IMG/VR virus record: IMGVR_UViG_2518645594_000001
Span: 12,431-76,430 of that record
Origin: a virus
Lineage: Duplodnaviria; Caudoviricetes
DNA: 64,000 bases
Direction: 5' to 3' (one strand)
Each line of letters starts with the position of its first letter. Positions within the stretch are counted from its first letter, which is position 1. Shown here piece after piece: positions 5,412 to 60,395 of the stretch. The notes beneath the pieces were generated by a model. It was given only the letters and a program-made list of their open reading frames with translations, was not told where the DNA came from and did not search any database. A program made the position numbers and the translations under genes.

Positions 5412-5741
5412 CTATAGCTCGTTCTTGATCCTGACAAAATTTTCTATGTCTGTATAAAGAAACCATATATCTTCGGCAATCTGTGAAGCTGTCTTACTAT
5501 GCATGCCGTTTAGAGTAGCAAGAATACTGCCTGTAACATTACACTCCTTCACAGTCAATTTAGATCTAACCGATTCGATTCTCTTACTGAAATCTTCAGG
5601 CAGCTCCGGATCTGGCGGAATGTTGGCCATAATTAATTTATTGGTCATAGCAAGAAAGAGCCCGAATTTTACATCTCCAGAACTTGTAGCAAGGATATGC
5701 ACCGCATCTCTCAGGCAGTGGTAGGTATCCAAAATGGACAT
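5412..5741 (-). CDS. AT-rich hypothetical protein (moron)
   Basis: 109-aa ORF, GGAGG RBS, low GC. Confidence 0.65.
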   Translation of the reverse strand: MSILDTYHCLRDAVHILATSSGDVKFGLFLAMTNKLIMANIPPDPELPEDFSKRIESVRSKLTVKECNVTGSILATLNGMHSKTASQIAEDIWFLYTDIENFVRIKNEL

Positions 5742-17040: not shown

Positions 17041-17655
17041 CTACTTCACCATATCTAGAATTCGAGCCTCTAGAGTCCCCTTTGCGTAACACGTCAAGTC
17101 TGGGGATGCGTACGGACTCTTGGTTGAGAAATCAATCGTCGTAGGATTCAATGTTGCGGATGAACCGTCAAAACCATAGATTTTTGCGTTGACGGTAAAT
17201 ACGTATTTGGTATTAACAGAGATATCGGTTCCGCCTTTTCCTGGCGCAACATAAATATTTACGCGGCCTTCTAGCTTTGTATCTCGGCTGACGTTAAACG
17301 CAGCATTTTGATTTGTTGTAGCAAATTTCGCAGAATCTGCCGTAACGTAATTATAAACTTGCTCGCCTCTAGCATTACTAAACTTCCGTGAAGTAGACCC
17401 ACAATCTACATACTCTGATGGCCGCGACGCCGAGAAACTAACGTTAATCAGTCGAGAACTCTTATCAATGTTATTGATAATGAAGAAATCTGAACTGAGC
17501 TGGCGGACCAGCTCGTCCCAAGACTTTTCAAAGTCAGTAGAGACGCTTCTGGTGTTAGCGATCGCTGTAGAAGCTGGGGGGCTGTAATCCATGGAAGATG
17601 ATGCGCACCCAGCCAATGTGCCAACCGCCAAGAGCAAAACTACTTTACTATACAT
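17041..17655 (-). CDS. AT-rich lipoprotein moron
   Basis: Lipobox LAGC; AAGGAG RBS; low GC. Confidence 0.8.
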   Translation of the reverse strand: MYSKVVLLLAVGTLAGCASSSMDYSPPASTAIANTRSVSTDFEKSWDELVRQLSSDFFIINNIDKSSRLINVSFSASRPSEYVDCGSTSRKFSNARGEQVYNYVTADSAKFATTNQNAAFNVSRDTKLEGRVNIYVAPGKGGTDISVNTKYVFTVNAKIYGFDGSSATLNPTTIDFSTKSPYASPDLTCYAKGTLEARILDMVK

Positions 17656-41596: not shown

Positions 41597-42327
41597 TGGC
41601 CGCGCTCCTTGGCCATGGCTGCGTCATAGTCGATACCCAGGGCTTCAGCCCGGCGCCTCGCCCGGTTTCCGTTACGCAGCGCGCCCTCGCAGAAGTCATA
41701 CTCCGGCCGTTCCGGTGGATATGCGTCAGCCGACATCGCCTGATCGAGAGCAGCGCGCAGGTTCTCGCTGTAGTTCTCGCCGATTACGCGCTCATGCGGC
41801 TTGTCCATCCAGCGGCCAACGATCTCAATGGAGCTGCTGTAATCGCCAGTGCCAGCGAGGGCGCTACTAGCGTTACGGATGTCCCAGCCGTTAGTCTCCA
41901 GGGCGTCGATTCGCTCCTTGTCCTTACGGAGCGCCTCGTTCTCGGCCTTGAGCTTGTCGATCTCCGCCTGCAAGCCCCAGACTTTCGCCTGAAGATCACC
42001 ACGATGCGCGGTTTCGCTAACAAGGCGTTCGCTTGCAACGGCCAGTGCCGCAGAAGTTCGGCCATCGCCATTGCATACCGTGCAGTGCCCGAGCCGCTCA
42101 AATGAGTCAGGACCGTGATAGGAAACGTGGATTTCCTCGCCGGAACCGCTGCAGGCTGGGCAGTAGTAGCCAAGCGCTGCCTTCGCGGCATCCCAGCCAT
42201 TCCAGGCCGAACCTACGTCAGGAATAGCATCCCACACGATGTGGCCGGCGTCGGAGATGGCGTCATCCAGCCACTTGTTGAAGTCGGGGTCTTGCCACTG
42301 CTGGCGATCTTGCTCACGGCTTCTCAT
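41593..42327 (-). CDS. Hypothetical protein with a CxxCxGxG Zn finger and coiled coil
   Basis: CPACSGSG...CTVCNGDG; coupled to flanking genes. Confidence 0.65.
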   Translation of the reverse strand: MRSREQDRQQWQDPDFNKWLDDAISDAGHIVWDAIPDVGSAWNGWDAAKAALGYYCPACSGSGEEIHVSYHGPDSFERLGHCTVCNGDGRTSAALAVASERLVSETAHRGDLQAKVWGLQAEIDKLKAENEALRKDKERIDALETNGWDIRNASSALAGTGDYSSSIEIVGRWMDKPHERVIGENYSENLRAALDQAMSADAYPPERPEYDFCEGALRNGNRARRRAEALGIDYDAAMAKERGQ

Positions 42328-43124
42328 GCTGCACCCCGCACGGCCTTGTCGTGGGTGTGCAGGCCGTCCCAGTTCTTCTTCATGGGTAGCTCGCCGGACA
42401 GGTACAGCTCGTACAGGCGAGTTGCCCCCTTGCGCAGGAGGATCGGCGTATAGCTGATGAATGGGTCTTTACCGTGAGGAGCGACCTCGTGCTGGTGTTC
42501 AGTCATGTACTTGTCGCGGGCGTAGGCGGCCACGCGGTACCGGGTACCAGACTTGCTCTCGTTGTAGAGCCAATTGCGGCCTTCGAGGAAGTGGCCGACC
42601 TGCATCACATTGACCCCATTGAGGCCCTTGCAGAACTGGGTCGGGCTCATGCCCTCCTTGAACAGGTTTTCGAGGTGCTCGATCTTCGTGGCCTGGGCCT
42701 CTACCTGGACTGTGAGCAGCACGCGGGCTTGCTCTGCCTCATAGGCAAGTTGGATCAGCTCGAGGCGGGTCAGCTCGCGCGGCTGCGACTGTTCGTTGAG
42801 CTTCTGCACAACGACCCGGCGCACTGCCTTGGATTCGCGCATCGCCACCAGAAGACACTGATCCTTGGTCAGCATCAGGCCTTCGGAGGCCGGGCCGCGG
42901 GAATTCTTAACTACGAAACTTTCGTAGTATTCGCCGTCGAGTTCGTCCTTACAGCGTGCAGTGAAGTCGGCGCGCCGAACCTCACTCTCGCCGTGTTGCA
43001 CCCTGGCTTCATTAACCAGGACGAGCAGATCAAAGCTGCTCATCATGCGCGCCACAGAATCGTGCTTCGCGTTTTGTGGCGCGAGCAATCCTATGGGCTG
43101 TACACTTGGGGTCTGCATATGCAT
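42324..43124 (-). CDS. Phage antirepressor (KilAC-type C-terminus)
   Basis: VAMRESKAVRR, QFCKGLNGVN, LYELY..GELPMKK.WDG. Confidence 0.82.
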   Translation of the reverse strand: MHMQTPSVQPIGLLAPQNAKHDSVARMMSSFDLLVLVNEARVQHGESEVRRADFTARCKDELDGEYYESFVVKNSRGPASEGLMLTKDQCLLVAMRESKAVRRVVVQKLNEQSQPRELTRLELIQLAYEAEQARVLLTVQVEAQATKIEHLENLFKEGMSPTQFCKGLNGVNVMQVGHFLEGRNWLYNESKSGTRYRVAAYARDKYMTEHQHEVAPHGKDPFISYTPILLRKGATRLYELYLSGELPMKKNWDGLHTHDKAVRGAA

Positions 43125-43222
43125 AATTGGTCCCACTTATGTGATGTTGCAGAGAGCCGGGCCGCAATCCCGGCTTTTTTGTGCCTGTAAGAAGCCCGAA
43201 AGAGGGCCTCTGTCTTTCACAA

Positions 43223-43435
43223 TCAGGGAACATCGAGGCCCTTTTTGTGCCCTACCAGCCCCAACACCGGGGCCTTGTGTCGCATTTGTCTCAATTGCTC
43301 CTGGACCGCGAGTGAGCGACTCATTTCCAAGTACTCCTCCGTCGATCTATCCAGGCTCCAGCCAAGGTCGGCAGCCAGCTGTCGAACCTCAGCCTTCACC
43401 TCGACTGGCAGCAATTCGAAGGTGGTTTCAGGCAT
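43223..43435 (-). CDS. Small putative regulator
   Basis: GGAGG RBS; downstream of cro. Confidence 0.6.
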   Translation of the reverse strand: MPETTFELLPVEVKAEVRQLAADLGWSLDRSTEEYLEMSRSLAVQEQLRQMRHKAPVLGLVGHKKGLDVP

Positions 43436-43453
43436 AGGCCCTCCATAGGGGCT

Positions 43454-43663
43454 TCAGGCCGTCTTATCCTGCTCACCGGCGCCGTTCATTTCTCGGAGCA
43501 GATCAGCAGCGCCCAGGCGACGGCCAAGATTGGCCAGTTCGTGCACATAGGTAGCGAGCTGCATGCCGGCCATACGTGCTTCCATGCGCAGCTTTCGAAC
43601 CTCTTCAGGCTTCCAGCGCGACTTGATCACTTCGCTGCGTTTGTTGGCGGGGTCCAGGTGCAT
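43454..43663 (-). CDS. CII-position small regulator (RHH-like)
   Basis: DPANKRS.VIK.R, GMQLATYV. Confidence 0.65.
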   Translation of the reverse strand: MHLDPANKRSEVIKSRWKPEEVRKLRMEARMAGMQLATYVHELANLGRRLGAADLLREMNGAGEQDKTA

Positions 43664-43692
43664 TCAGGGATTTCCTTGTGATTGAAAAATGG

Positions 43693-43890
43693 TTACGCAG
43701 CCGACTTGCGAGCAGGTATTGGGCGAATCTCGTTCGCCTCAATGTGCCCGTCGTCGTGCATGGTGATTCGGATGTCCCGCTTGGCACGGAACATTTGGGA
43801 GACGGCGCTCTGCTGTATCCCCAGAGCCTTGGCGAGGTCGCTCTGGGTTCCATGCCCGGCCAGGTATTCCTCAAGGGAAACAGTGTTCAT
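43693..43890 (-). CDS. cro: Cro repressor
   Basis: HTH TQSDLAKALGIQQSAVSQM, E.RP.P; divergent from cI. Confidence 0.92.
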   Translation of the reverse strand: MNTVSLEEYLAGHGTQSDLAKALGIQQSAVSQMFRAKRDIRITMHDDGHIEANEIRPIPARKSAA

Positions 43891-43920
43891 CTGGTCTGCC
43901 TCATAGGGGTTTTATCGAAT

Positions 43921-43995
43921 ATTAGCACTGCTGTTTTACAATATTCAAGGACAAAGAGTAGCAGTGCTGTTTGCTTAAGGATCAGCTGTGCTACT
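43921..43995. promoter_or_regulatory. OR operator triplet with overlapping pR/pRM
   Basis: 15-bp imperfect palindromes ATTAGCACTGCTGTT (43921), AGTAGCAGTGCTGTT (43957), ATCAGCTGTGCTACT (43981). Confidence 0.85.
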
Positions 43996-44006
43996 AAATC
44001 ACGCGC

Positions 44007-44810
44007 ATGAAGAAACCCATCAGAACCCCTTTGTCCGCAGAGCAGCTTGCCGATGCTAAGCGGCTGCATGACATCTACAAAAAGCGTGCCAAAGAGTCTA
44101 GGGAAGATCCAACCAAGCCGGCCTTAACCCAGACCGAGGTCGGTGAGCGATGCGAATGGAAATCTCCTCAGAGCACTGTCAGTCAGTACATGACTGGGAA
44201 GGTAGCCTTGAATCTCGACGCGCTCGTAAAGCTGTCCGAGGCTCTAGATTTTGAGCCGGCCGAGGTAAGCCCTACTCTCGCCGCAGGCATCAGAAGAGTC
44301 TCAGCTGGGCAGCACCTAGACGATGAGGCGCAAGCCGCCAATTCGCCCCTGCCTGAATCGGCTGATGTTCCTCAGTCCGAAGATGAGCGCTATGCATTCG
44401 TTCCGCAATACGACGCGAAAGCAGCCGCGGGCCTGGGCAGCGAGAACCCTCATGTAGAGGTTCATTCCACGTTGGCATTCAAGCGCGACTGGCTGAAGTC
44501 AAAGGGCGTGAAGCCTGAAAGCCTGGCAGTTATCTACGCCGAGGGGCAAAGCATGTGGCCAACGATCAACGACCGCGACGTATTGCTTGTCGACAGGTCT
44601 CGTATCGAGCCGGTTGATGGTCAGGTTTTCGTCTTGACTGGCACCGATGGCGCCATCGTCAAGCGATTGATCCAAGGGCCGCTGGGACAATGGATCCTGC
44701 GTAGCGATAACGATGACAAGGATGAATACCCAGATCGCTCTCACCTGCGCAGCAAGGGGAATGAACACCGTATTATCGGCAAGGTTATCTGGCGAGGGGG
44801 GGATCTCTAG
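44007..44810 (+). CDS. cI: CI repressor (HTH + S24 peptidase)
   Basis: LTQ..VG...QSTVSQY HTH; AAAG cleavage site; GQSMWPT; VKRL; IIGKV. Confidence 0.93.
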   Translation: MKKPIRTPLSAEQLADAKRLHDIYKKRAKESREDPTKPALTQTEVGERCEWKSPQSTVSQYMTGKVALNLDALVKLSEALDFEPAEVSPTLAAGIRRVSAGQHLDDEAQAANSPLPESADVPQSEDERYAFVPQYDAKAAAGLGSENPHVEVHSTLAFKRDWLKSKGVKPESLAVIYAEGQSMWPTINDRDVLLVDRSRIEPVDGQVFVLTGTDGAIVKRLIQGPLGQWILRSDNDDKDEYPDRSHLRSKGNEHRIIGKVIWRGGDL

Positions 44811-44974
44811 CCCTCCTTAACGGCAAGGCGATGCAGATTCTGTAATCTGGTGACGTAATGTCGCGATGTCTAGGTCAGGATGTAAAAATTAAGGATGAGC
44901 ATCCCGCTCGCCATAATGTGAAATTGCAGTCTGATGTCCGGAACGCCAAATTCATGTAAATGCAGGGAGGCAAT

Positions 44975-45550
44975 GTGATACCACACTGGAACGCTGAAGG
45001 CACTCTTCCGCCTATCAATGAGGCAAACCCAACTGGATTCGACAGGGCTCCCTATGAGGTCACGCTGAAGGAGATAGTGGAACGCTTCGCGACCACGCTC
45101 GAGCGCTGTGATATTCTTGATGGGTACATCAAGCACCGAGCAGAGCTTCACAAAATGGGGCTGACAACAGGATTCCAGTGGCTTGATGGTAGCTTTTCAG
45201 AAGACATCGAGATGCTAGAGCATAGGCCGCCGCGAGATATTGATGTCGTCACATTCACCCCCGCAGATGACGCATTTGTTCAGGGCCTGACCCAGGAGCA
45301 AATCGAGCTGATCGGAGGTAATCAGAAGAAAATCAAGACTGATTACAAGGTGGATTTTTACGTGCAATCACTCTCCGATCCGGCGGATGTGCTGGTTTCG
45401 ATGACGACCTACTGGTACAGCATGTGGTCGCACAAGCGAACCGGGCAGTGGAAAGGCTTCCTCAAGGTGGACCTTTCACCGAACCTCGACGCTGAGGCTG
45501 TCATCTTACTCAACGAACGCCAGAAGGAGCTTGCAGATGAACAGATCTGA
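44975..45550 (+). CDS. Pol-beta-superfamily nucleotidyltransferase-like protein (DUF6932-like)
   Basis: WLDGSF...PRDIDVV (GS + DxD), distal VDFY; GTG start after GGAGG. Confidence 0.75.
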   Translation: MIPHWNAEGTLPPINEANPTGFDRAPYEVTLKEIVERFATTLERCDILDGYIKHRAELHKMGLTTGFQWLDGSFSEDIEMLEHRPPRDIDVVTFTPADDAFVQGLTQEQIELIGGNQKKIKTDYKVDFYVQSLSDPADVLVSMTTYWYSMWSHKRTGQWKGFLKVDLSPNLDAEAVILLNERQKELADEQI

Positions 45551-46439
45551 ATATGTCAGCAAGTCTGCAGAGCTTGGGTTTCTGGAAAAGCAAGCAGCAT
45601 CACCTGGCCTTAGCCGACTTACACTGCTATCCATTCAGTCTAGAATCGATCAGGCTCGGCAATTCCTGAATGAAAATAGTGGCTATGCCTATAAGCCTGC
45701 GCGCGTAAAGCTGACTTATCGTGGCGTGCCTGTGATCGGGACTCATGGGGTATTGGCAGAATTTGGAGCCGCGGCGACGAAGGCGTTCAGTGTAGCTATC
45801 ACCGCAATCGCCGCTTCGGTATCTGGAGCCCTCGCGGACAAAGGCCCAATTCCGAACAGGCTGGCTAATCAGCTGCTGATCACAGGCCCAGCACGGGGAT
45901 CCTTTGGTTTTGAGCTTGAAGAAATTCCAGCTGATAAGCAGCTTGACATCGAAGGAACCACTCCGGTTGCCCAAGCGATTGAAATCCTAACTGACTTGCT
46001 TGAAGGTACAACTAAAAGTGATGAAGAGCTCTCTGAGCCTTTATCGCGCCTTGCAGATCGAGCTATATCAGCGGTTTCCGATTTCTTATCCGAGTTGGCT
46101 GACAATGACGCGTCATGCGCGCTATCTACAGAGACTCGCAGCTTTAGGTTCGCGGATGTTGAGCAGGTCAAGCGAAGCAAGGCTAGGCTGAGCCGAGATA
46201 ACATCAAAGAGCAAGACGAAGAGATCAATGGATCCTTTGTAGGCCTACTGCCAGAAAAGCGCTTGTTCGAATTCAAAACTGTCGATGGTGAAGTTATTTA
46301 CGGTCGTATTCCTACCGACATCGCCTCACCAAATGTGATCAACAATAATCTCTACACGCCAGTCAAGATCGTTGTCACCGCCCGACGCATAGGCTCAAGC
46401 AACCCGAGATACAGACTCAAGACTCTGCCCTGGGCTTAA
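45537..46439 (+). CDS. Hypothetical partner protein, possible C-terminal OB-like beta domain
   Basis: 300 aa, overlaps the NTase stop, AAGGAG RBS, GSFGFEL motif, terminator after. Confidence 0.78.
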   Translation: MNRSEYVSKSAELGFLEKQAASPGLSRLTLLSIQSRIDQARQFLNENSGYAYKPARVKLTYRGVPVIGTHGVLAEFGAAATKAFSVAITAIAASVSGALADKGPIPNRLANQLLITGPARGSFGFELEEIPADKQLDIEGTTPVAQAIEILTDLLEGTTKSDEELSEPLSRLADRAISAVSDFLSELADNDASCALSTETRSFRFADVEQVKRSKARLSRDNIKEQDEEINGSFVGLLPEKRLFEFKTVDGEVIYGRIPTDIASPNVINNNLYTPVKIVVTARRIGSSNPRYRLKTLPWA

Positions 46440-46461
46440 TCACACCTCCGCTGTAGCTGCG

Positions 46462-46521
46462 AGCCCGCCCAGCGCGGGCTTTTTATGCCTGGGTGATGGC
46501 TGATAGCCATGATGGTAGAAT
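46462..46521 (+). repeat. Terminator + promoter boundary module, copy 1
   Basis: AGCCCGCC..GCGGGCTTTTT then GATGGCTGATAGCCATGATGGTAGAAT. Confidence 0.7.
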
Positions 46522-46548
46522 TGAGCCTCACATTTCAGGGAGGTTGGA

Positions 46549-47121
46549 ATGAAGCTCGGTTTAGGATTGGCAACACTGATTATTGCAGGGTCTGCAATTG
46601 CAGCACCAAAAAGCTCCTCGCCCAAGCCATGGGCCCAGGAGCCAGACAGCTTTATGGGGATCAGCTTTGATCAGAAGCTGGTGTATTCCCTCCCGCAATG
46701 CCCAGCAGGCTACGATCTGCCTACTGCAGCATGCCGTGGCGAACCCTACCAGGGGCTCTACACGATTAAAGGCACGCCTGCCATTGGCCTCGGTTACAGC
46801 CTATCCGCGATGGCTAAAACCGGCCCGGTTGATTACTTCTACCTCACAACGCATTCAGATGATTTCCTCCGGCTTGAGCAGCTCTTCATCAGCAAATATG
46901 GCCAGCCCTCGAAGCGCTCTACTGAAGTGGTCAAGACCAAGGTCGGCGCCGAGTTCACTAACGAGAGACTGCAATGGATCGGCAAAAAGGTTGAGATTCT
47001 TCTGCAGAAATATGACGGAGACATCGACACTAGCTCCGCAAGCCTGAACAGCCGTGCTGCTACGCAGCGATCGGAGATAGAGGGCGACCAAAAAATCCAG
47101 GAAGCTGCCAGTAAACTCTAA
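46549..47121 (+). CDS. Exported hypothetical protein (moron)
   Basis: Signal peptide, GGAGG RBS, KYGQP motif. Confidence 0.78.
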   Translation: MKLGLGLATLIIAGSAIAAPKSSSPKPWAQEPDSFMGISFDQKLVYSLPQCPAGYDLPTAACRGEPYQGLYTIKGTPAIGLGYSLSAMAKTGPVDYFYLTTHSDDFLRLEQLFISKYGQPSKRSTEVVKTKVGAEFTNERLQWIGKKVEILLQKYDGDIDTSSASLNSRAATQRSEIEGDQKIQEAASKL

Positions 47122-47140
47122 ACCTTCGGCTCAGTCGTAT

Positions 47141-47198
47141 AGCCCGCCTCTGAGCGGGCTTTTTTGGATACGATGGCGGATGGCCACAATGGTAGAAT
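47141..47198 (+). repeat. Terminator + promoter boundary module, copy 2
   Basis: AGCCCGCC..GCGGGCTTTTT then GATGGCGGATGGCCACAATGGTAGAAT (23/27 identical to copy 1). Confidence 0.7.
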
Positions 47199-47229
47199 GC
47201 CATTTTTATCTACGTTAGAGGCTTTAAGG

Positions 47230-47898
47230 ATGAAAGCAGTGGTAGCGGCCGTGGTTGCCATGGTAATTGCCGGTGGCGGATGGCTAGGCTGGAACAGGTA
47301 TGAGAGTGCCAAAGAAACAGAAGCGGCAGTTCAAGCCGTTCAGGTTTCTGCTTCCCAAGCAGAGCGCCAAATGAACGCTCGCACCGAGGATGGGATCACT
47401 TTCGATGAGTACTTCAAGCGTAGTGAGGCGGCGGTGGAGAGCATGGATAAGGAAATTTCCTCTCTTGAGGCCCTCCCATGGAATCACAACCCGTTCTACC
47501 GGGACATTGCTATAGCATTCATTGAGCAATCCAGGGCTCTCTTGCGCTTTGATCGAGCCGATACGCGCCTCCTCATGCAAGAGAACAGCGCATATGAGGA
47601 ATACGAGGATGCCAAAAAAGAACTTGACGAAGCTAAGTCTTCCGTGGCTAGAGACTGGGCCCTAAAAAGATTCATACGTAAAGGTGATGACCTAGTCGAG
47701 ATCATAAATAAGAAAATCATCTCCGTTAAGGAACGCGTAGACAAAGTGAAGAAGATGGTAGCAGCCGATGCTGCTGTGAAATCAGCCTTCGGTGCAGACA
47801 GAGGCCTAACTCAGGCTACTGTTGAAAAATTGGAAAAGTACGTCGAGTCCGCAAAGCCTGAGACGCCTGAGACGCCTGAGAAGGCCAGCGAAAGCTAG
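47230..47898 (+). CDS. Membrane-anchored helical hypothetical protein (moron)
   Basis: N-terminal TM helix, coiled coil, PET-PET-PEK tail. Confidence 0.75.
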   Translation: MKAVVAAVVAMVIAGGGWLGWNRYESAKETEAAVQAVQVSASQAERQMNARTEDGITFDEYFKRSEAAVESMDKEISSLEALPWNHNPFYRDIAIAFIEQSRALLRFDRADTRLLMQENSAYEEYEDAKKELDEAKSSVARDWALKRFIRKGDDLVEIINKKIISVKERVDKVKKMVAADAAVKSAFGADRGLTQATVEKLEKYVESAKPETPETPEKASES

Positions 47899-47915
47899 GT
47901 TGTGTCTCATAAGCG

Positions 47916-47940
47916 AGCCCGCCACTGAGCGGGCTTTTTT
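47916..47940 (+). terminator. Terminator of the immunity-region block (third copy of the hairpin)
   Basis: AGCCCGCCACTGAGCGGGCTTTTTT. Confidence 0.75.
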
Positions 47941-47957
47941 GTGGGCGGCAAAAAAAT

Positions 47958-48000
47958 ATCAGCACTGCTGTTGACTCGTGAATAACAGCAGTGCTACTTT
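47958..48000 (+). promoter_or_regulatory. OL operators and pL promoter
   Basis: ATCAGCACTGCTGTT (47958) and AACAGCAGTGCTACT (47984) match the OR sites; TTGACT...TACTTT. Confidence 0.82.
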
Positions 48001-48048
48001 TAATCCATCGAGGCACTACACAGCCCCTCGACGGGCCCTCAAGCCGAC

Positions 48049-48060
48049 CGCTCTTTAACA
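48049..48060 (+). promoter_or_regulatory. boxA antitermination element
   Basis: CGCTCTTTAACA just downstream of pL. Confidence 0.78.
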
Positions 48061-48278
48061 ACCAAGACCGCCGAGCCTGCAGGCATAGCAGGCCACCATC
48101 CCCGCAGGGCTCTGGTGCGATCAGGTGTGCCGCAATAGAGCGGCATCCAAGCGGCGCGCATGCCTCGACAGATGCAGGAAGCGCGATACCGGGTGAGCGA
48201 CCGGGGCCTGAGAGACCACGTATTCACTGAAGCACCTGGGCTACCGGGTGCTTTGGGAATCCACTGGAGGAACATCAC

Positions 48279-48464
48279 ATGCATCTGAAAGACCAGGGCT
48301 TCAAGTTCTGCATCAGCCCGGACAGGCAGCGCGGCCGATGGCTGCACCCTACCGAGTTCAAGGTTCTGCATTCCGACTGAACCGACGTAACGGAATGGCC
48401 TGACGAGAAGTTGCTGGCTTTCCTAATGCCAGCGCCCCAGCAGCAAGACCTGTTCGCAGCATGA
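48279..48464 (+). pseudogene. First pL ORF, interrupted by an in-frame TGA at 48378-48380
   Basis: GGAGG RBS; MHLKDQGFKFCISPD...HSD*TDVTEWPDEKLLAFLMPAPQQQDLFAA*. Confidence 0.55.
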
Positions 48465-48530
48465 CGATTTCACTGGCTGGCCTTGGCGACAGGGCCAGAT
48501 GGGAAATCAACCGCCCTGGAGGGCAAGACG

Positions 48531-48674
48531 ATGAGCAAGCAAGAAATGGAAAAGCGTATTGGCGAGCTTGAAGACTCCTTGAAGGGTGACGAGACCGACG
48601 ATGACACCCGTGGTGATGTCCTTGATGAAATCGCCAAGCTGGAAGAGCAGTTGAATGAAGTTCAGGCAATGTGA
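48531..48674 (+). CDS. Small acidic helical protein
   Basis: GGAGG RBS after a hairpin; MSKQEMEKRIGELE. Confidence 0.6.
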   Translation: MSKQEMEKRIGELEDSLKGDETDDDTRGDVLDEIAKLEEQLNEVQAM

Positions 48675-48904
48675 GCGAGGTGATAGCCGTGATACGAGTC
48701 CAGATGGTCAGATCAGGGATGCTTGCATACCAGGCCGAATTCGATAACAAAGAAGAGGCTGTTTCAACAGCAGAATCTATGGCCGCCGGCTGTGGTGACG
48801 CGAAGAAAGATTCAGTCAGCGGATGCCTGATCAGCTTCAGCACTAAAGGTGGTTTTGTCCGTGCGGTCGACCTGGACTCACACGCCAGCGCCACGTCCGC
48901 CTGA
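48671..48904 (+). CDS. Small hypothetical protein
   Basis: GTGA-coupled to the upstream ORF. Confidence 0.55.
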   Translation: MSEVIAVIRVQMVRSGMLAYQAEFDNKEEAVSTAESMAAGCGDAKKDSVSGCLISFSTKGGFVRAVDLDSHASATSA

Positions 48905-48937
48905 CGTTAACTGCCCGATGCCCTGCTCCCCATCGCA

Positions 48938-49138
48938 GGGTGTGATCGGAGAGGGCTTTTGTAAATCGCACCTATCCCGGCGCCGGGTGAAGTCAGCTGA
49001 GGCTGATAGTGTGGGAAAAGCCCTCTACCGATACACCCCGCATCCCCTTCCCTTCACATACGACCGCATTAGGCAGGCGCCAGGCCACCTTTCACGGTGG
49101 GTTTGGTCACCCGCGCCTGACGCCTGGCCAATGCGGTC
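48938..49138 (+). ncRNA. Candidate structured RNA / RNase III-type hairpins
   Basis: Long inverted repeats at 48938-49038 and 49062-49138 in an interval without a credible ORF. Confidence 0.4.
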
Positions 49139-49151
49139 ATGAGGATAAACC

Positions 49152-49472
49152 ATGTACCAGCCACCAGAACCATCTGGGGTAGGCCGCTGCCTGCGCTGCG
49201 AAAGCTGCATCGAAGAATCAGAGCAGGTCGGCGGTATCTGTTTCGAGTGCCAGCCAATCGAGGCCGGCGAGCAGCCAGCATTCCCAGTGCGTGCCAGCGA
49301 GTACGGCGGTCACGGAACCTGCTTCGGCCTGACCATTCGCGACCACTTCGCAGCTCAGGCGCTGCAGGGGATCTGCGCCCACCCTGACACCTGGGGTCGA
49401 CAGGTTCATGAGGTCGCGCAAGTTGCTTACGAATTGGCCGACGCCATGCTCGCCGCCCGGGTGAAGCCATGA
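49152..49472 (+). CDS. Phage hypothetical protein
   Basis: PAFP...GLTIRDHFAAQALQG...AYELADAMLAAR conserved phage motif. Confidence 0.8.
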   Translation: MYQPPEPSGVGRCLRCESCIEESEQVGGICFECQPIEAGEQPAFPVRASEYGGHGTCFGLTIRDHFAAQALQGICAHPDTWGRQVHEVAQVAYELADAMLAARVKP

Positions 49473-49738
49473 GCGGCTGGATCAAGTGCAGCGACAGGCT
49501 GCCCGAAACCGGCGTGACCGTTTTGGTTTATGCCCCACCACAGCCAGAGGATTGGCCGGACGACGTCCGTATCAGCTTCGATGCCCTGGATCCCGATGCG
49601 GACGAGCCGCGCTGGCTGGTGCATGGCGAGCACTACGAGCACTTCTGCTGCGTAGCTCTTCCGGAAAGCAGCGTCGGACCATCTGAACAGGCTCCATACA
49701 CGCATTGGATGCCCTGCCCACCTATTCCCACCGAGTAA
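49469..49738 (+). CDS. DUF551-family protein
   Basis: WIKCSDRLPE...THWMP.P. Confidence 0.82.
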   Translation: MSGWIKCSDRLPETGVTVLVYAPPQPEDWPDDVRISFDALDPDADEPRWLVHGEHYEHFCCVALPESSVGPSEQAPYTHWMPCPPIPTE

Positions 49739-59201: not shown

Positions 59202-60395
59202 TTACGGCTTACCTTTATAGACGTTTGAGCGGTGGTGGATCAGATACTGGCGCTGATCCGGAGTGAAGTCGCCGACATTCATGCCTGACGCTAAGCCCCA
59301 GGCTGCCACGACCTCCTGAGCGGTATCGGCAACCATCACCTCCCCATTGTCCTGAAAAGTTATCCAACCTCGGTCAAAAAGCTTGTCCACATGAGGAGCC
59401 AACATGAACCCATTGCTCCCATCCAATCGCTCACCGTCCGAACAATCCTTCCACGGTTTGATGTGGCTAGCGGTAAGGAAACGTGTGTCGGTAACACCAG
59501 TAATACGGCAAGATCTTTCGCGTTCCAATACTCGCAGGCGGAATGTTCCCTGACCAATGCGCGAGCGAACCAGCTGCTCGCGCTCTGTAGCGGTTAATCC
59601 TTGGTTGAGCTCGATCTGGCGCACGACTTCATCCGCCCTCACCTGATCCTCAATCTCATGAGCTCGCTCAGTTATCGCGTTTCCAGTAGCGTTCGATAGG
59701 CTGAGGACAAACGAGCCAAGCTCAGGCGAGATACGGGCGAGATAACACCCCTGGTTGCCGTTTCCATTGATCTGCAGCGGGGAGTTTTTAGCTGGTAATA
59801 GCCTGGCAATGCTCGCGATGTGTTCCTTTGGTGACACAGCCTGGTCCAGTTCAATCCACTCGACGGGAACCAACCATCCAGCATCCGACCATTTATGACC
59901 TGCTTGGCCGAAAGCGCTGGGCTTTGGTTGGTCGGTAAAGGCAGAAGTTGCCACGCCAATAGCTCGAATCTGTCCTCCAGCGTAAGAAATTACAACATCA
60001 CCCGCTCTAACCAATGTCAGGTTGATGTAGGTCTGGTTTCGAGCACCATTTTGATTCTTTGTGGGCGACCATATGTAACCACCTTCCAGTTCGGCTCGGT
60101 ATGTTTGCTTGTGGTTGACCCACCAGAAGCGCGAAGCTTCTTGTTCGCGCGAATGCCGCTCGAAAACCACAACCTCTCTGGTTAGGTCAAGAGACTTACG
60201 TTCCCAACCAGCCTCGATCCAGAGATGCGCCCAGGTGTGCGAGTCATCAGTCCTGGAGTTCGCCCACCAGGCCTTATGGTTTCGCGCGACTGGTGGTAGC
60301 CCACCGACTAGCTGATCAATTTGCGCGAAGGTCAGTTCAACAGAGTTTTCAGTTTGAGACCGAAGGAAATCGGCCAGGGGCGTGTACTTACTCAC
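59202..60395 (-). CDS. Multi-domain HNH endonuclease (modification-dependent restriction-like)
   Basis: N-terminal KY.PL..FL...LTF..I...LP..A...AWWAN domain; PUA/EVE-like WWVN...GYIWSP...GDVV; R.GQ..FR, CRITG, ASHIKPW, NG.ML.PH.DKLFDRG. Confidence 0.88.
   Translation of the reverse strand: MSKYTPLADFLRSQTENSVELTFAQIDQLVGGLPPVARNHKAWWANSRTDDSHTWAHLWIEAGWERKSLDLTREVVVFERHSREQEASRFWWVNHKQTYRAELEGGYIWSPTKNQNGARNQTYINLTLVRAGDVVISYAGGQIRAIGVATSAFTDQPKPSAFGQAGHKWSDAGWLVPVEWIELDQAVSPKEHIASIARLLPAKNSPLQINGNGNQGCYLARISPELGSFVLSLSNATGNAITERAHEIEDQVRADEVVRQIELNQGLTATEREQLVRSRIGQGTFRLRVLERERSCRITGVTDTRFLTASHIKPWKDCSDGERLDGSNGFMLAPHVDKLFDRGWITFQDNGEVMVADTAQEVVAAWGLASGMNVGDFTPDQRQYLIHHRSNVYKGKP

Follow-up and report, generated by a model that had tools for sequence, protein, structure and literature searches.

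AbiE (AbiEii/AbiEi) and MenAT (MenT/MenA) are two-gene modules in which a small nucleotidyltransferase (NTase) of the Pol-beta fold is the harmful partner. PrrC is an anticodon nuclease that is embedded in type I restriction-modification (RM) operons. PDC-M63 is an untested "phage defence candidate" of PADLOC-DB v2, made of genes A and B and predicted by guilt-by-embedding (Payne et al., preprint). We analysed a window of 64,000 nucleotides, which corresponds to bases 12431-76430 of the 76,430-base virus record IMGVR_UViG_2518645594_000001. The host element is a lambdoid Pseudomonas (putida-group) prophage, and its immunity region holds, directly behind the repressor gene cI, a cassette of two genes that we call A and B. 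The pair is a divergent relative of PDC-M63, and the family is already catalogued as a candidate. A first-pass annotation, made from the letters of the window, had proposed an NTase-based defence or toxin-antitoxin pair and a candidate new anti-phage system. The NTase motifs, the slot and the defence neighbourhood speak for the former part of this proposal. The claim of novelty falls, as A belongs to Pfam DUF6932 and matches PDC-M63A, and the family of B weakly matches PDC-M63B. Our favoured reading, which we hold to be evenly balanced between right and wrong, is that the pair is an abortive-infection or toxin-antitoxin-like defence cassette made in the lysogen together with cI, with A as the effector and B as its restraint.

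Gene A matched the PADLOC models of PDC-M63A, PDLC04744 (E 8.4e-14, 49.8 bits) and PDLC04745 (E 1.9e-5), where PADLOC models were matched by E value and without PADLOC's own thresholds. The question of whether the pair corresponds to an already described system therefore has a divided answer: A does match, but the B of the window has no match to PDC-M63B at E <= 1. The family of B was scanned against PADLOC with 134 of the 150 listed cluster representatives, leaving out 13 fragments and 3 members that are in alignment A1. Thirty of the 134 weakly matched one of the four PDC-M63B models (best E 2.2e-6 and 2.4e-5), and the matches were collinear over models of 306-313 positions, a length comparable to that of B. 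These weak similarities are consistent with a remote homology of the B family and PDC-M63B, short of membership. PDC-M32A was matched by 10 of the 134 members. The two systems share more than this, in that A matches PDC-M63A, B has the same length as the PDC-M63B models, and both pairs are embedded in type I RM operons and are found in prophages. They differ in that A has 191 amino acids against the 152 positions of the PDC-M63A profile and possesses extra conserved N- and C-terminal motifs. PDC-M63B proper was found in none of 401 sampled gammaproteobacterial genomes, whereas DUF6932 was found in 6 of them, and its models found nothing in three genomes that hold the pair. Literature searches returned no paper on DUF6932 and none that joins a nucleotidyltransferase, an OB-fold and a two-gene anti-phage system. 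Among the papers listed for a nucleotidyltransferase together with hsdS, hsdR and abortive infection, none looked relevant from its title and the start of its abstract. PDC-M32 appeared in the literature only as listed PADLOC matches, and beyond one deletion in Escherichia coli NILS69, taken up below, no published test of PDC-M63 was found.

The product of gene A covers the DUF6932 profile (PF22014) entirely, at positions 1-142 of 142, with 111.1 bits against a gathering cut-off of 27. It also matched phrog_9194 (E 2e-39), and E. coli relatives bear the same name in RefSeq ("DUF6932 family protein"); NCBIfam gave no match for A. The alignment of A comprised 40 relatives, down to 45% identity. 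The GS, DxD and distal Asp residues, which the first-pass annotation had recognised as the Pol-beta NTase motif set, are invariant in all 40 (Table 1). In the AlphaFold (AF2) model of A (predicted local distance difference test score, pLDDT, 93.2; predicted template modelling score 0.90) the three motifs follow one another on the strands in the order expected of a Pol-beta-type NTase. The best structural matches of the model are nearly all NTases, weakly. Foldseek returned MNT antitoxins at the top (7aer_A, E 3e-3; 7bxo and 6m6u), followed by CD-NTases and CCA-adding enzymes. VIA-align had aminoglycoside NTases and minimal NTases at the top and ranked AadA first (Z 5.3, root-mean-square deviation (rmsd) 3.8 over 109 aligned residues), then 2rff (Z 4.7), AAD(9) (Z 4.4), HI0073 (Z 3.9), the kanamycin NTase (Z 3.8) and MNT (Z 3.7), with the CD-NTases at Z of about 3.1-3.5. 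In such comparisons a Z of about 8 is the safe level and a lower Z does not prove a shared fold, and the case for an NTase therefore rests mainly on the invariant motif set. Foldseek against the PDB gave no match at E <= 1e-3 for the model of A or of B, and the PDB sequence search returned nothing credible for either profile. By its motifs and its model, A most resembles, if weakly, a Pol-beta-type NTase with a complete set of active-site motifs and a predicted activity. The aromatic and basic motif YWYSMWSHKR, further along the protein, is a possible substrate-binding site. One locus (L138:1492-1938; L numbers denote the loci discussed here) encodes a short DUF6932 protein of 148 amino acids that has no B-like neighbour and keeps GS and DxD-like motifs (FGSF, DDVDV). 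DUF6932 is thus broader than the A-B module.

The B of the window found no match in Pfam, PADLOC (E <= 1) or NCBIfam; it matched phrog_18731 over its full length (E 4.4e-93). Its AF2 model (pLDDT 86.1) has three parts. A helical hairpin at the N-terminus (residues 3-46) is followed by a middle part of mixed structure, in which the turn of a beta-hairpin bears the GSFGF segment, and by a C-terminal five-stranded barrel (residues 223-296, with strands 223-238, 243-248, 253-257, 275-285 and 291-296). The barrel aligns with OB-type domains and was matched by VIA-align to SilF (Z 8.5, rmsd 2.4, 70 aligned), the single-stranded DNA-binding protein (SSB) Rim1 (Z 7.4), the RecG wedge (Z 7.3) and PriB (Z 7.2), and by Foldseek to IF1, eIF5A and the N-domain of LysRS at E values of 8e-3 to 0.1. 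The first-pass annotation had pointed to a GSFGFEL segment and a beta-rich C-terminus in this protein, and both are borne out, the former by the invariance of GSFGF in the 40 aligned sequences and the latter by the five C-terminal strands of the model. Among 135 diverse members of the family the GSFGF segment is at least 90% conserved. We read B as a probably non-enzymatic protein, because its conserved positions are mainly Gly, Pro and Phe, plus R36, S122 and R175, and include no invariant His, Asp or Cys. When the whole model was compared with viral predicted structures (Foldseek, BFVD), it matched a DUF6575 protein (E 6.3e-11), a protein of Leptospira phage LE1 (E 3.7e-8) and a third phage protein (E 7.1e-8), all three of them uncharacterised. 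A protein atlas also points B to the DUF6575 cluster, with a language-model score of 0.88 that serves as a lead only. Pfam on the 135 family members gave no consistent family and no DUF6575, so that the link of B to DUF6575 rests on the structure and the language-model score. DUF6575 is one of the domains that Vassallo et al. (2022; PMC9519451) give for their validated E. coli systems.

A and B form one conserved module, which is widespread over many phyla. A relative of B is encoded in 270 species genomes, and the B profile retrieved 1557 clusters at 50% identity (E <= 1e-3); the named hosts include Pseudomonadota, Planctomycetota, Verrucomicrobiota and Methanoperedens. We fetched 133 loci by way of B, of which 53 lie in viral contigs and 80 in species genomes, the latter taken from 270 such matches. 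Gene A immediately precedes B, in the same orientation, in 132 of the 133, and the single miss has just 86 bp of upstream DNA. Both genes are intact in 116 loci. The likely start of B overlaps the end of A in 111 of these (by 4 nucleotides in 63, by 14 in 30 and by 8 in 13), and in 114 the two genes either overlap or lie no more than 10 nucleotides apart. The closer the A of a locus is to that of the window, the closer is its B, the two identities being correlated with r = 0.90. When the search was made from the side of A, the 6 DUF6932 genes of the 401 gammaproteobacterial genomes comprised 4 that adjoin B, one short solo form of 148 amino acids and one weak partial match. The first-pass annotation had suggested looking at homologs for co-occurrence and for enrichment among defence genes, and the homologs do sit together and do sit among such genes.

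The genomic contexts fall into RM operons and prophage repressor slots. The nearest upstream open reading frame (ORF) was scanned in 125 loci, 8 others having no qualifying ORF. In the genome loci this neighbour was an RM or defence gene in 19 of 75 cases; it was HsdS in 11, and the other eight were MmeI, ResIII, type ISP, N6_N4 methylase, HsdM_N, DUF1156, Cas2 and an HD/HD_assoc protein. In the viral contigs a repressor lay directly upstream in 18 of 50 (13 with Peptidase_S24, 5 with HTH_3 only). The downstream ORFs, 45 of 126 of which were scanned, included HsdR (2), Eco57I/MmeI-type methylases (2), GmrSD, Schlafen-like proteins (2), Fic, UvrD, and SNF2 with NOV_C. With local hidden Markov models made from these HsdS and HsdR sequences and from putative HsdM sequences, same-strand type I RM subunits were found in 22 of the 80 genome loci and in 0 of the 53 viral loci. 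HsdS upstream and HsdR downstream flank the pair in 13 loci. The RM operons typically have, as in L066, L072, L032 and L059, the order hsdM - hsdS - A - B - small ORF - hsdR - ORF of about 235 amino acids, where the recurrent small ORF after B encodes 212-215 amino acids and has no Pfam family. In E. coli a related pair, its B 32% identical to that of the window, occurs in 26 of 5426 complete genomes. The two records inspected are lambdoid prophages with the order ren-P-O-cII-cro / cI - DUF6932 - hypothetical - ... gam-bet-exo. The slot of the pair is equivalent to that of rexAB in lambda, as the first-pass annotation had held for the slot behind cI. Validated defence genes show the same pattern of contexts in the Payne et al. 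preprint, whose own candidates are predictions. The guilt-by-association with defence is strong.

Which of the two partners is harmful is suggested by how the pair decays. Away from contig ends, A is truncated or split beside a full-length B in 11 loci (L007, L025, L030, L040, L050, L067, L069, L073, L077, L078 and L079). The reverse case, a split B with an intact A, occurs in one (L133). In a length-proportional binomial test, 11 of 12 breaks in A give p = 2.4e-4, and with L077 and L078 taken as one event (10 of 11) p = 5.6e-4. The isolate genome L007 has lost, by comparison with L008, about 275 bp from the interior of A and with them the catalytic core, and L069 has other sequence in place of the 5' part of A. 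This asymmetry fits a toxin (A) with an antitoxin (B), and it favours a toxic effector in A, with B restraining it or serving as its sensor. An NTase acting as the toxin is also what AbiE and MenAT would lead one to expect, and the window pair shares with them its occurrence on mobile elements and in defence contexts. It differs from them in other respects. Neither A nor B has an AbiEii/DUF1814 or AbiEi/MenA-type match (Pfam and PADLOC, E <= 1), the order of the genes is reversed, with the NTase first, and the partner is an OB-containing protein of 300 amino acids rather than a transcriptional regulator.

The same broken copies of A bear on two other ways of pairing an NTase with a partner. 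OB folds bind oligonucleotides. In a signal synthase and receptor arrangement, similar to CBASS or Hailong, A would make a nucleotide or oligonucleotide signal upon infection and B would bind it through the OB barrel and act as the effector. CdnC, CdnE, DncV and CdnD are among the weak structural matches of A. Losing a synthase would do no harm, in keeping with the more frequent breakage of A than of B. If both losses were neutral, however, the breaks in B should be at least as many as those in A, and the count is 1 against 11. Moreover, PADLOC gave no CD-NTase match for A and no effector model for the pair at E <= 1, and B lacks both a Pfam or PADLOC effector match and invariant residues of a catalytic type. 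We consider a signalling pair quite improbable. The MNT-HEPN (MntA-HepT) systems resemble the pair in layout, with a minimal NTase as the first gene of a coupled pair and with MntA as the best Foldseek match of A, since the entries at the top (7aer_A, E 3e-3) are MntA/MNT antitoxins complexed with HEPN toxins. By analogy, A would be an antitoxin that nucleotidylates a toxic B, for example on the conserved S122 or Y292, and B does have a conserved Ser and Tyr. The decay pattern contradicts an NTase as the antitoxin. If B were a toxin in need of A, the 11 loci with an intact B beside a broken A should be lethal, and these loci thus argue against such a toxin. B is also not a HEPN protein: it has no HEPN match and no invariant His or RxxxxH-type (Rx4-6H) motif, and A has no NTP_transf_2 match at E <= 1. 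This arrangement we regard as very improbable indeed. That gene 2 stands outside the named systems, as the first-pass annotation had it, agrees with the absence of any HEPN, AbiEi or CBASS-effector model match in Pfam and PADLOC.

Returning to A as effector and B as restraint, a defence cassette could work as follows. The lysogen would make A and B together with cI. A would be a harmful effector that transfers nucleotides to a cellular or phage target, for which our guess is a nucleic-acid 3' end such as that of tRNA. B would bind A and restrain it until a cue of infection arrives, possibly a single-stranded nucleic acid sensed by the OB barrel, upon which A would be released. We infer in this scheme the expression with cI, the binding of A to B, the toxicity of A, its target, the trigger and the protection against phages. 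In 13 loci the pair shares an operon with hsdS and hsdR and stands between them, which recalls PrrC and gave the idea of a restriction guard. PrrC is named in the Payne et al. preprint. The proteins are nevertheless unrelated to PrrC, and the pair is also found without RM genes nearby, as in the prophage of the window. A still wider class is conceivable, which we find rather doubtful. It would join the pair to PDC-M63, and possibly to PDC-M32 and the DUF6575 phage proteins, as a widespread, unrecognised abortive-infection class of bacteria and at least the Methanoperedens archaea. In it a non-enzymatic OB-barrel partner would keep a minimal NTase toxin inactive until it detects single-stranded nucleic acid of the phage, and the freed toxin would nucleotidylate tRNA or another nucleic-acid end and so stop the infection. 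In the RM-embedded copies the cue could instead be a phage disabling type I restriction, in the manner of a PrrC-style guard. If the defence reading is true, it would provide a mechanism for one of 145 untested "embedded" defence candidates and a third lineage of NTase toxins, unrelated in sequence, beside AbiEii and MenT. It would also show the role of a cassette in the rexAB slot of Pseudomonas prophages. Once validated, a mechanism would give an annotation to a large number of gene pairs now called "hypothetical", in the 270 species genomes, in the 1557 clusters and in distant phyla.

Several findings weigh against this reading. The B of the window matches no PADLOC model, and no longer form of B and no A-B fusion was found, which is weak evidence in itself. 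A lacks every other NTase family of Pfam at E <= 1, NTP_transf_2 included, and its likeness to NTases of known structure, which goes no further than Z 5.3 and a Foldseek E of 3e-3, is weak. The co-occurrence was counted from the side of B, and from the side of A it is 4 of 6 only. The decay counts come largely from metagenome bins, with possible assembly errors, and from loci that are not phylogenetically independent. In searches by blastn and tblastn the region and both proteins found nothing among 50,697 phage records, from which the window's own and near records were possibly excluded, and the tblastn absence of A and B from these records counts here. Two further points, on the transcription and the terminator of the pair, are given with the cassette below. 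The one published test found of the catalogued relative was negative: in E. coli NILS69, deletion of PDC-M63AB from a prophage made no change against 10 virulent phages (preprint 10.1101/2024.12.20.629700).

As the sole reported deletion of PDC-M63AB, the NILS69 experiment lends itself to another explanation, namely that the pair is an addiction or stabilisation module, or other lysogenic-conversion cargo, without an anti-phage role; in RM operons it could instead be an accessory that modulates type I restriction. Tight coupling and the asymmetry of decay would fit any toxin-antitoxin pair, and a toxin-antitoxin-like YafO pair is the cargo of the same slot in sister phages. Against this, the pair recurs in type I RM operons and near GmrSD, MmeI-type, type ISP and Cas2 genes of unrelated phyla, and also in the exclusion slot of prophages of both Pseudomonas and E. 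coli, a pattern that validated defence genes share (Payne et al., preprint). We judge a purely stabilising or conversion role unlikely.

The stretch 44811-46460 is a discrete, swappable cargo cassette of the immunity region. Two loci, L140 and L141, with a cI that is 99% identical to that of the window, match it at 97-98.6% identity on either side of the cassette, as far as 44810 and from 46461 onward. In place of the cassette they carry a different insert of 1188 bp, which encodes a 181-amino-acid protein and a YafO-toxin-like protein. In two sequencing runs the contigs break off here as well, at 44810 in X2, which resumes at 46461, and at 44806 in X3. Conversely, L158 and L082, whose cI is 66% identical, share with the window only 44954-46433, at 77% identity. 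Among 27 loci with DNA 3' of a relative of the window cI (duplicates having been dropped before the scan), the pair is present in 1 and other cargo in the rest, and the slot is in this sense a cargo hotspot. The other cargo includes the YafO pair, a P63C protein, a Schlafen-like protein, DUF3800/PDC-M04A, a LeoBC-like protein, HipA_2 with DUF3037 (PDC-M66A/B) and unknowns. The YafO pair (L140:5972-6963, also in L141, L142 and L160) consists of the 181-amino-acid protein and a 146-amino-acid YafO-toxin-like protein (E 4.5e-21). At L164:6247-7820 the HipA_2 kinase and DUF3037 lie behind a cI relative and match PDC-M66A/B at E 3.6e-13 and 2.9e-22, a second catalogued candidate in the hotspot. The likeness to lambda rexAB is one of position only: the pair follows cI immediately and in the same orientation, precedes the early-left recombination genes and is probably expressed in the lysogen. 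There is no relation in sequence or fold that we could see, the Pfam scan found no Rex family, and the models of A and B are not membrane-like.

The shared part of the cassette begins 21 nucleotides before the start codon of A, and it therefore carries a ribosome-binding site and no obvious promoter. A promoter scan found no promoter-like site between cI and A; a weak TTAAGG-17-CATAAT is seen there by eye, below the threshold of the scan. The simplest reading is that A and B are co-transcribed with cI in the lysogen, because the pair has no 27-nucleotide repeat of its own, of the kind that precedes the next two genes, and no terminator separates it from cI. In a run labelled as RNA (X1), 100%-identical contigs cover part of cI, 44822-45082 (the spacer into A), A, the A/B junction, the end of B and the next gene. 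These contigs are a hint of expression, not proof, and detract from the case as well, being assembled contigs of one small run in which strand and level are not readable and DNA carry-over is possible. The run has no contigs on 42000-44007 or 47271-49500, an absence that is uninformative in a run so small. At the right edge of the cassette the fold of the 56-nucleotide stretch 46440-46495 reaches -21.7 kcal/mol, with a z of -1.4 only. The terminator that the first-pass annotation placed behind the pair is present as a hairpin with a U-run after B. It is missing from the list of the consensus scan, the second of the two adverse points announced above; that scan did list two near-identical hairpins at 47141 and 47915.

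Table 1. Positions, in the 64,000-nucleotide window, of the cassette, its neighbours and the motifs of A and B.
Feature	Position	Strand	Basis or remark
cro-like gene, divergent from cI	43693-43890	-	
cI-type repressor	44007..44810	+	Pfam Peptidase_S24 E 6.4e-16, HTH_3 E 4.5e-6; phrog_4 transcriptional repressor E 2.2e-42
Swappable cargo cassette (spacer + A + B), 1.65 kb	44811..46460	+	blastn borders
Gene A, DUF6932 protein, 191 amino acids, predicted minimal Pol-beta-type nucleotidyltransferase	44975..45550	+	
GS motif, G72-S73 of A	45188..45193	+	invariant 40/40; end of model strand 67-71
DxD motif, predicted metal-binding, D88-I-D90 of A	45236..45244	+	D88 and D90 invariant 40/40; start of strand 89-95
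Third acidic residue, D127 of A	45353..45355	+	invariant 40/40; on strand 126-132
Aromatic/basic YWYSMWSHKR motif of A	45410..45439	+	Y146, W147, Y148, W151, H153, R155 invariant 40/40
A end/B start overlap, 14 nucleotides, translational coupling	45537..45550	+	read from sequence
Gene B, 300 amino acids	45537..46439	+	start ATG 45537, AAGGAG 6 nucleotides upstream
GSFGFE motif of B, beta-hairpin turn	45897..45914	+	G121-F125 invariant 40/40; strands 113-118, 124-129
OB-like beta-barrel of B, residues 223-296	46203..46424	+	VIA-align, Foldseek
Terminator-like hairpin with U-run, right cassette edge	46461..46487	+	8-bp stem (46461-46481), 5-nucleotide loop, UUUUUAU

The window as a whole has a lambdoid layout. 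The structural genes are on the - strand, as are the O-like replication, Ant-like and cro-like genes up to 43890. The + strand carries, in order, cI, the A-B pair, two small cargo genes, Erf, an exonuclease, an SSB, a methyltransferase and, from 62807 to the end of the window, an integrase. Two proteins that bear the names of Pseudomonas monteilii and P. alloputida, 98% and 95% identical, are the nearest relatives of B. A spacer of 164 nucleotides separates the stop of cI from the start of A (Table 1). We placed this start at GTG 44975 because AGGGAGG lies 5 nucleotides upstream and 191 amino acids is the usual length among relatives; ATG 44960 is an alternative that is likewise in the open frame. 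Both ORFs are real genes and chance ORFs are ruled out, since relatives at E <= 1e-3 number 379 for A and 178 for B. The picture of two overlapping, lower-GC genes behind cI, drawn in the first pass, holds in that both are on the + strand with a 14-nucleotide overlap and have a GC content of 0.52 (A) and 0.50 (B), the backbone genes having about 0.59-0.66. The low-GC tract extends over cI and the two genes 3' of the pair as well. Rfam over 43000-48500 gave a single match at chance level (E 0.73), and no tRNA was found in the window.

The two cargo genes that follow the pair form units of their own. The first unit, 46495-47166, has its gene at 46549-47121 (phrog_16676, 190 amino acids). The second, 47172-47941, has its gene at about 47164/47230-47898, whose Rz-like product is membrane-anchored and weakly TPR-like. 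A 27-nucleotide repeat precedes each, with GATGGCTGATAGCCATGATGGTAGAAT at 46495 and a copy of it, 85% identical, at 47172; the repeat holds a palindrome and an extended -10-like TGGTAGAAT. Each ends at its own near-identical terminator, at 47141-47166 and 47916-47941. Elsewhere in the window, a 396-amino-acid protein near the integrase end (59202-60392, - strand), with DUF7662 (E 1.1e-18) and an HNH_2 endonuclease domain (E 6.2e-12), may be a further cargo or defence gene. The ORFs 5412-5741 and 17041-17655, on the - strand of the tail and structural region, have a GC content of 0.41 and 0.45, well below that of their neighbours, and may be further acquired cargo. Finally, an Ant-like anti-repressor (phrog_63, E 1.8e-38) is encoded at 42324-43136 on the - strand, in the rightward early operon, flanked by the cro/cII-like genes on one side and the O-like replication gene on the other.

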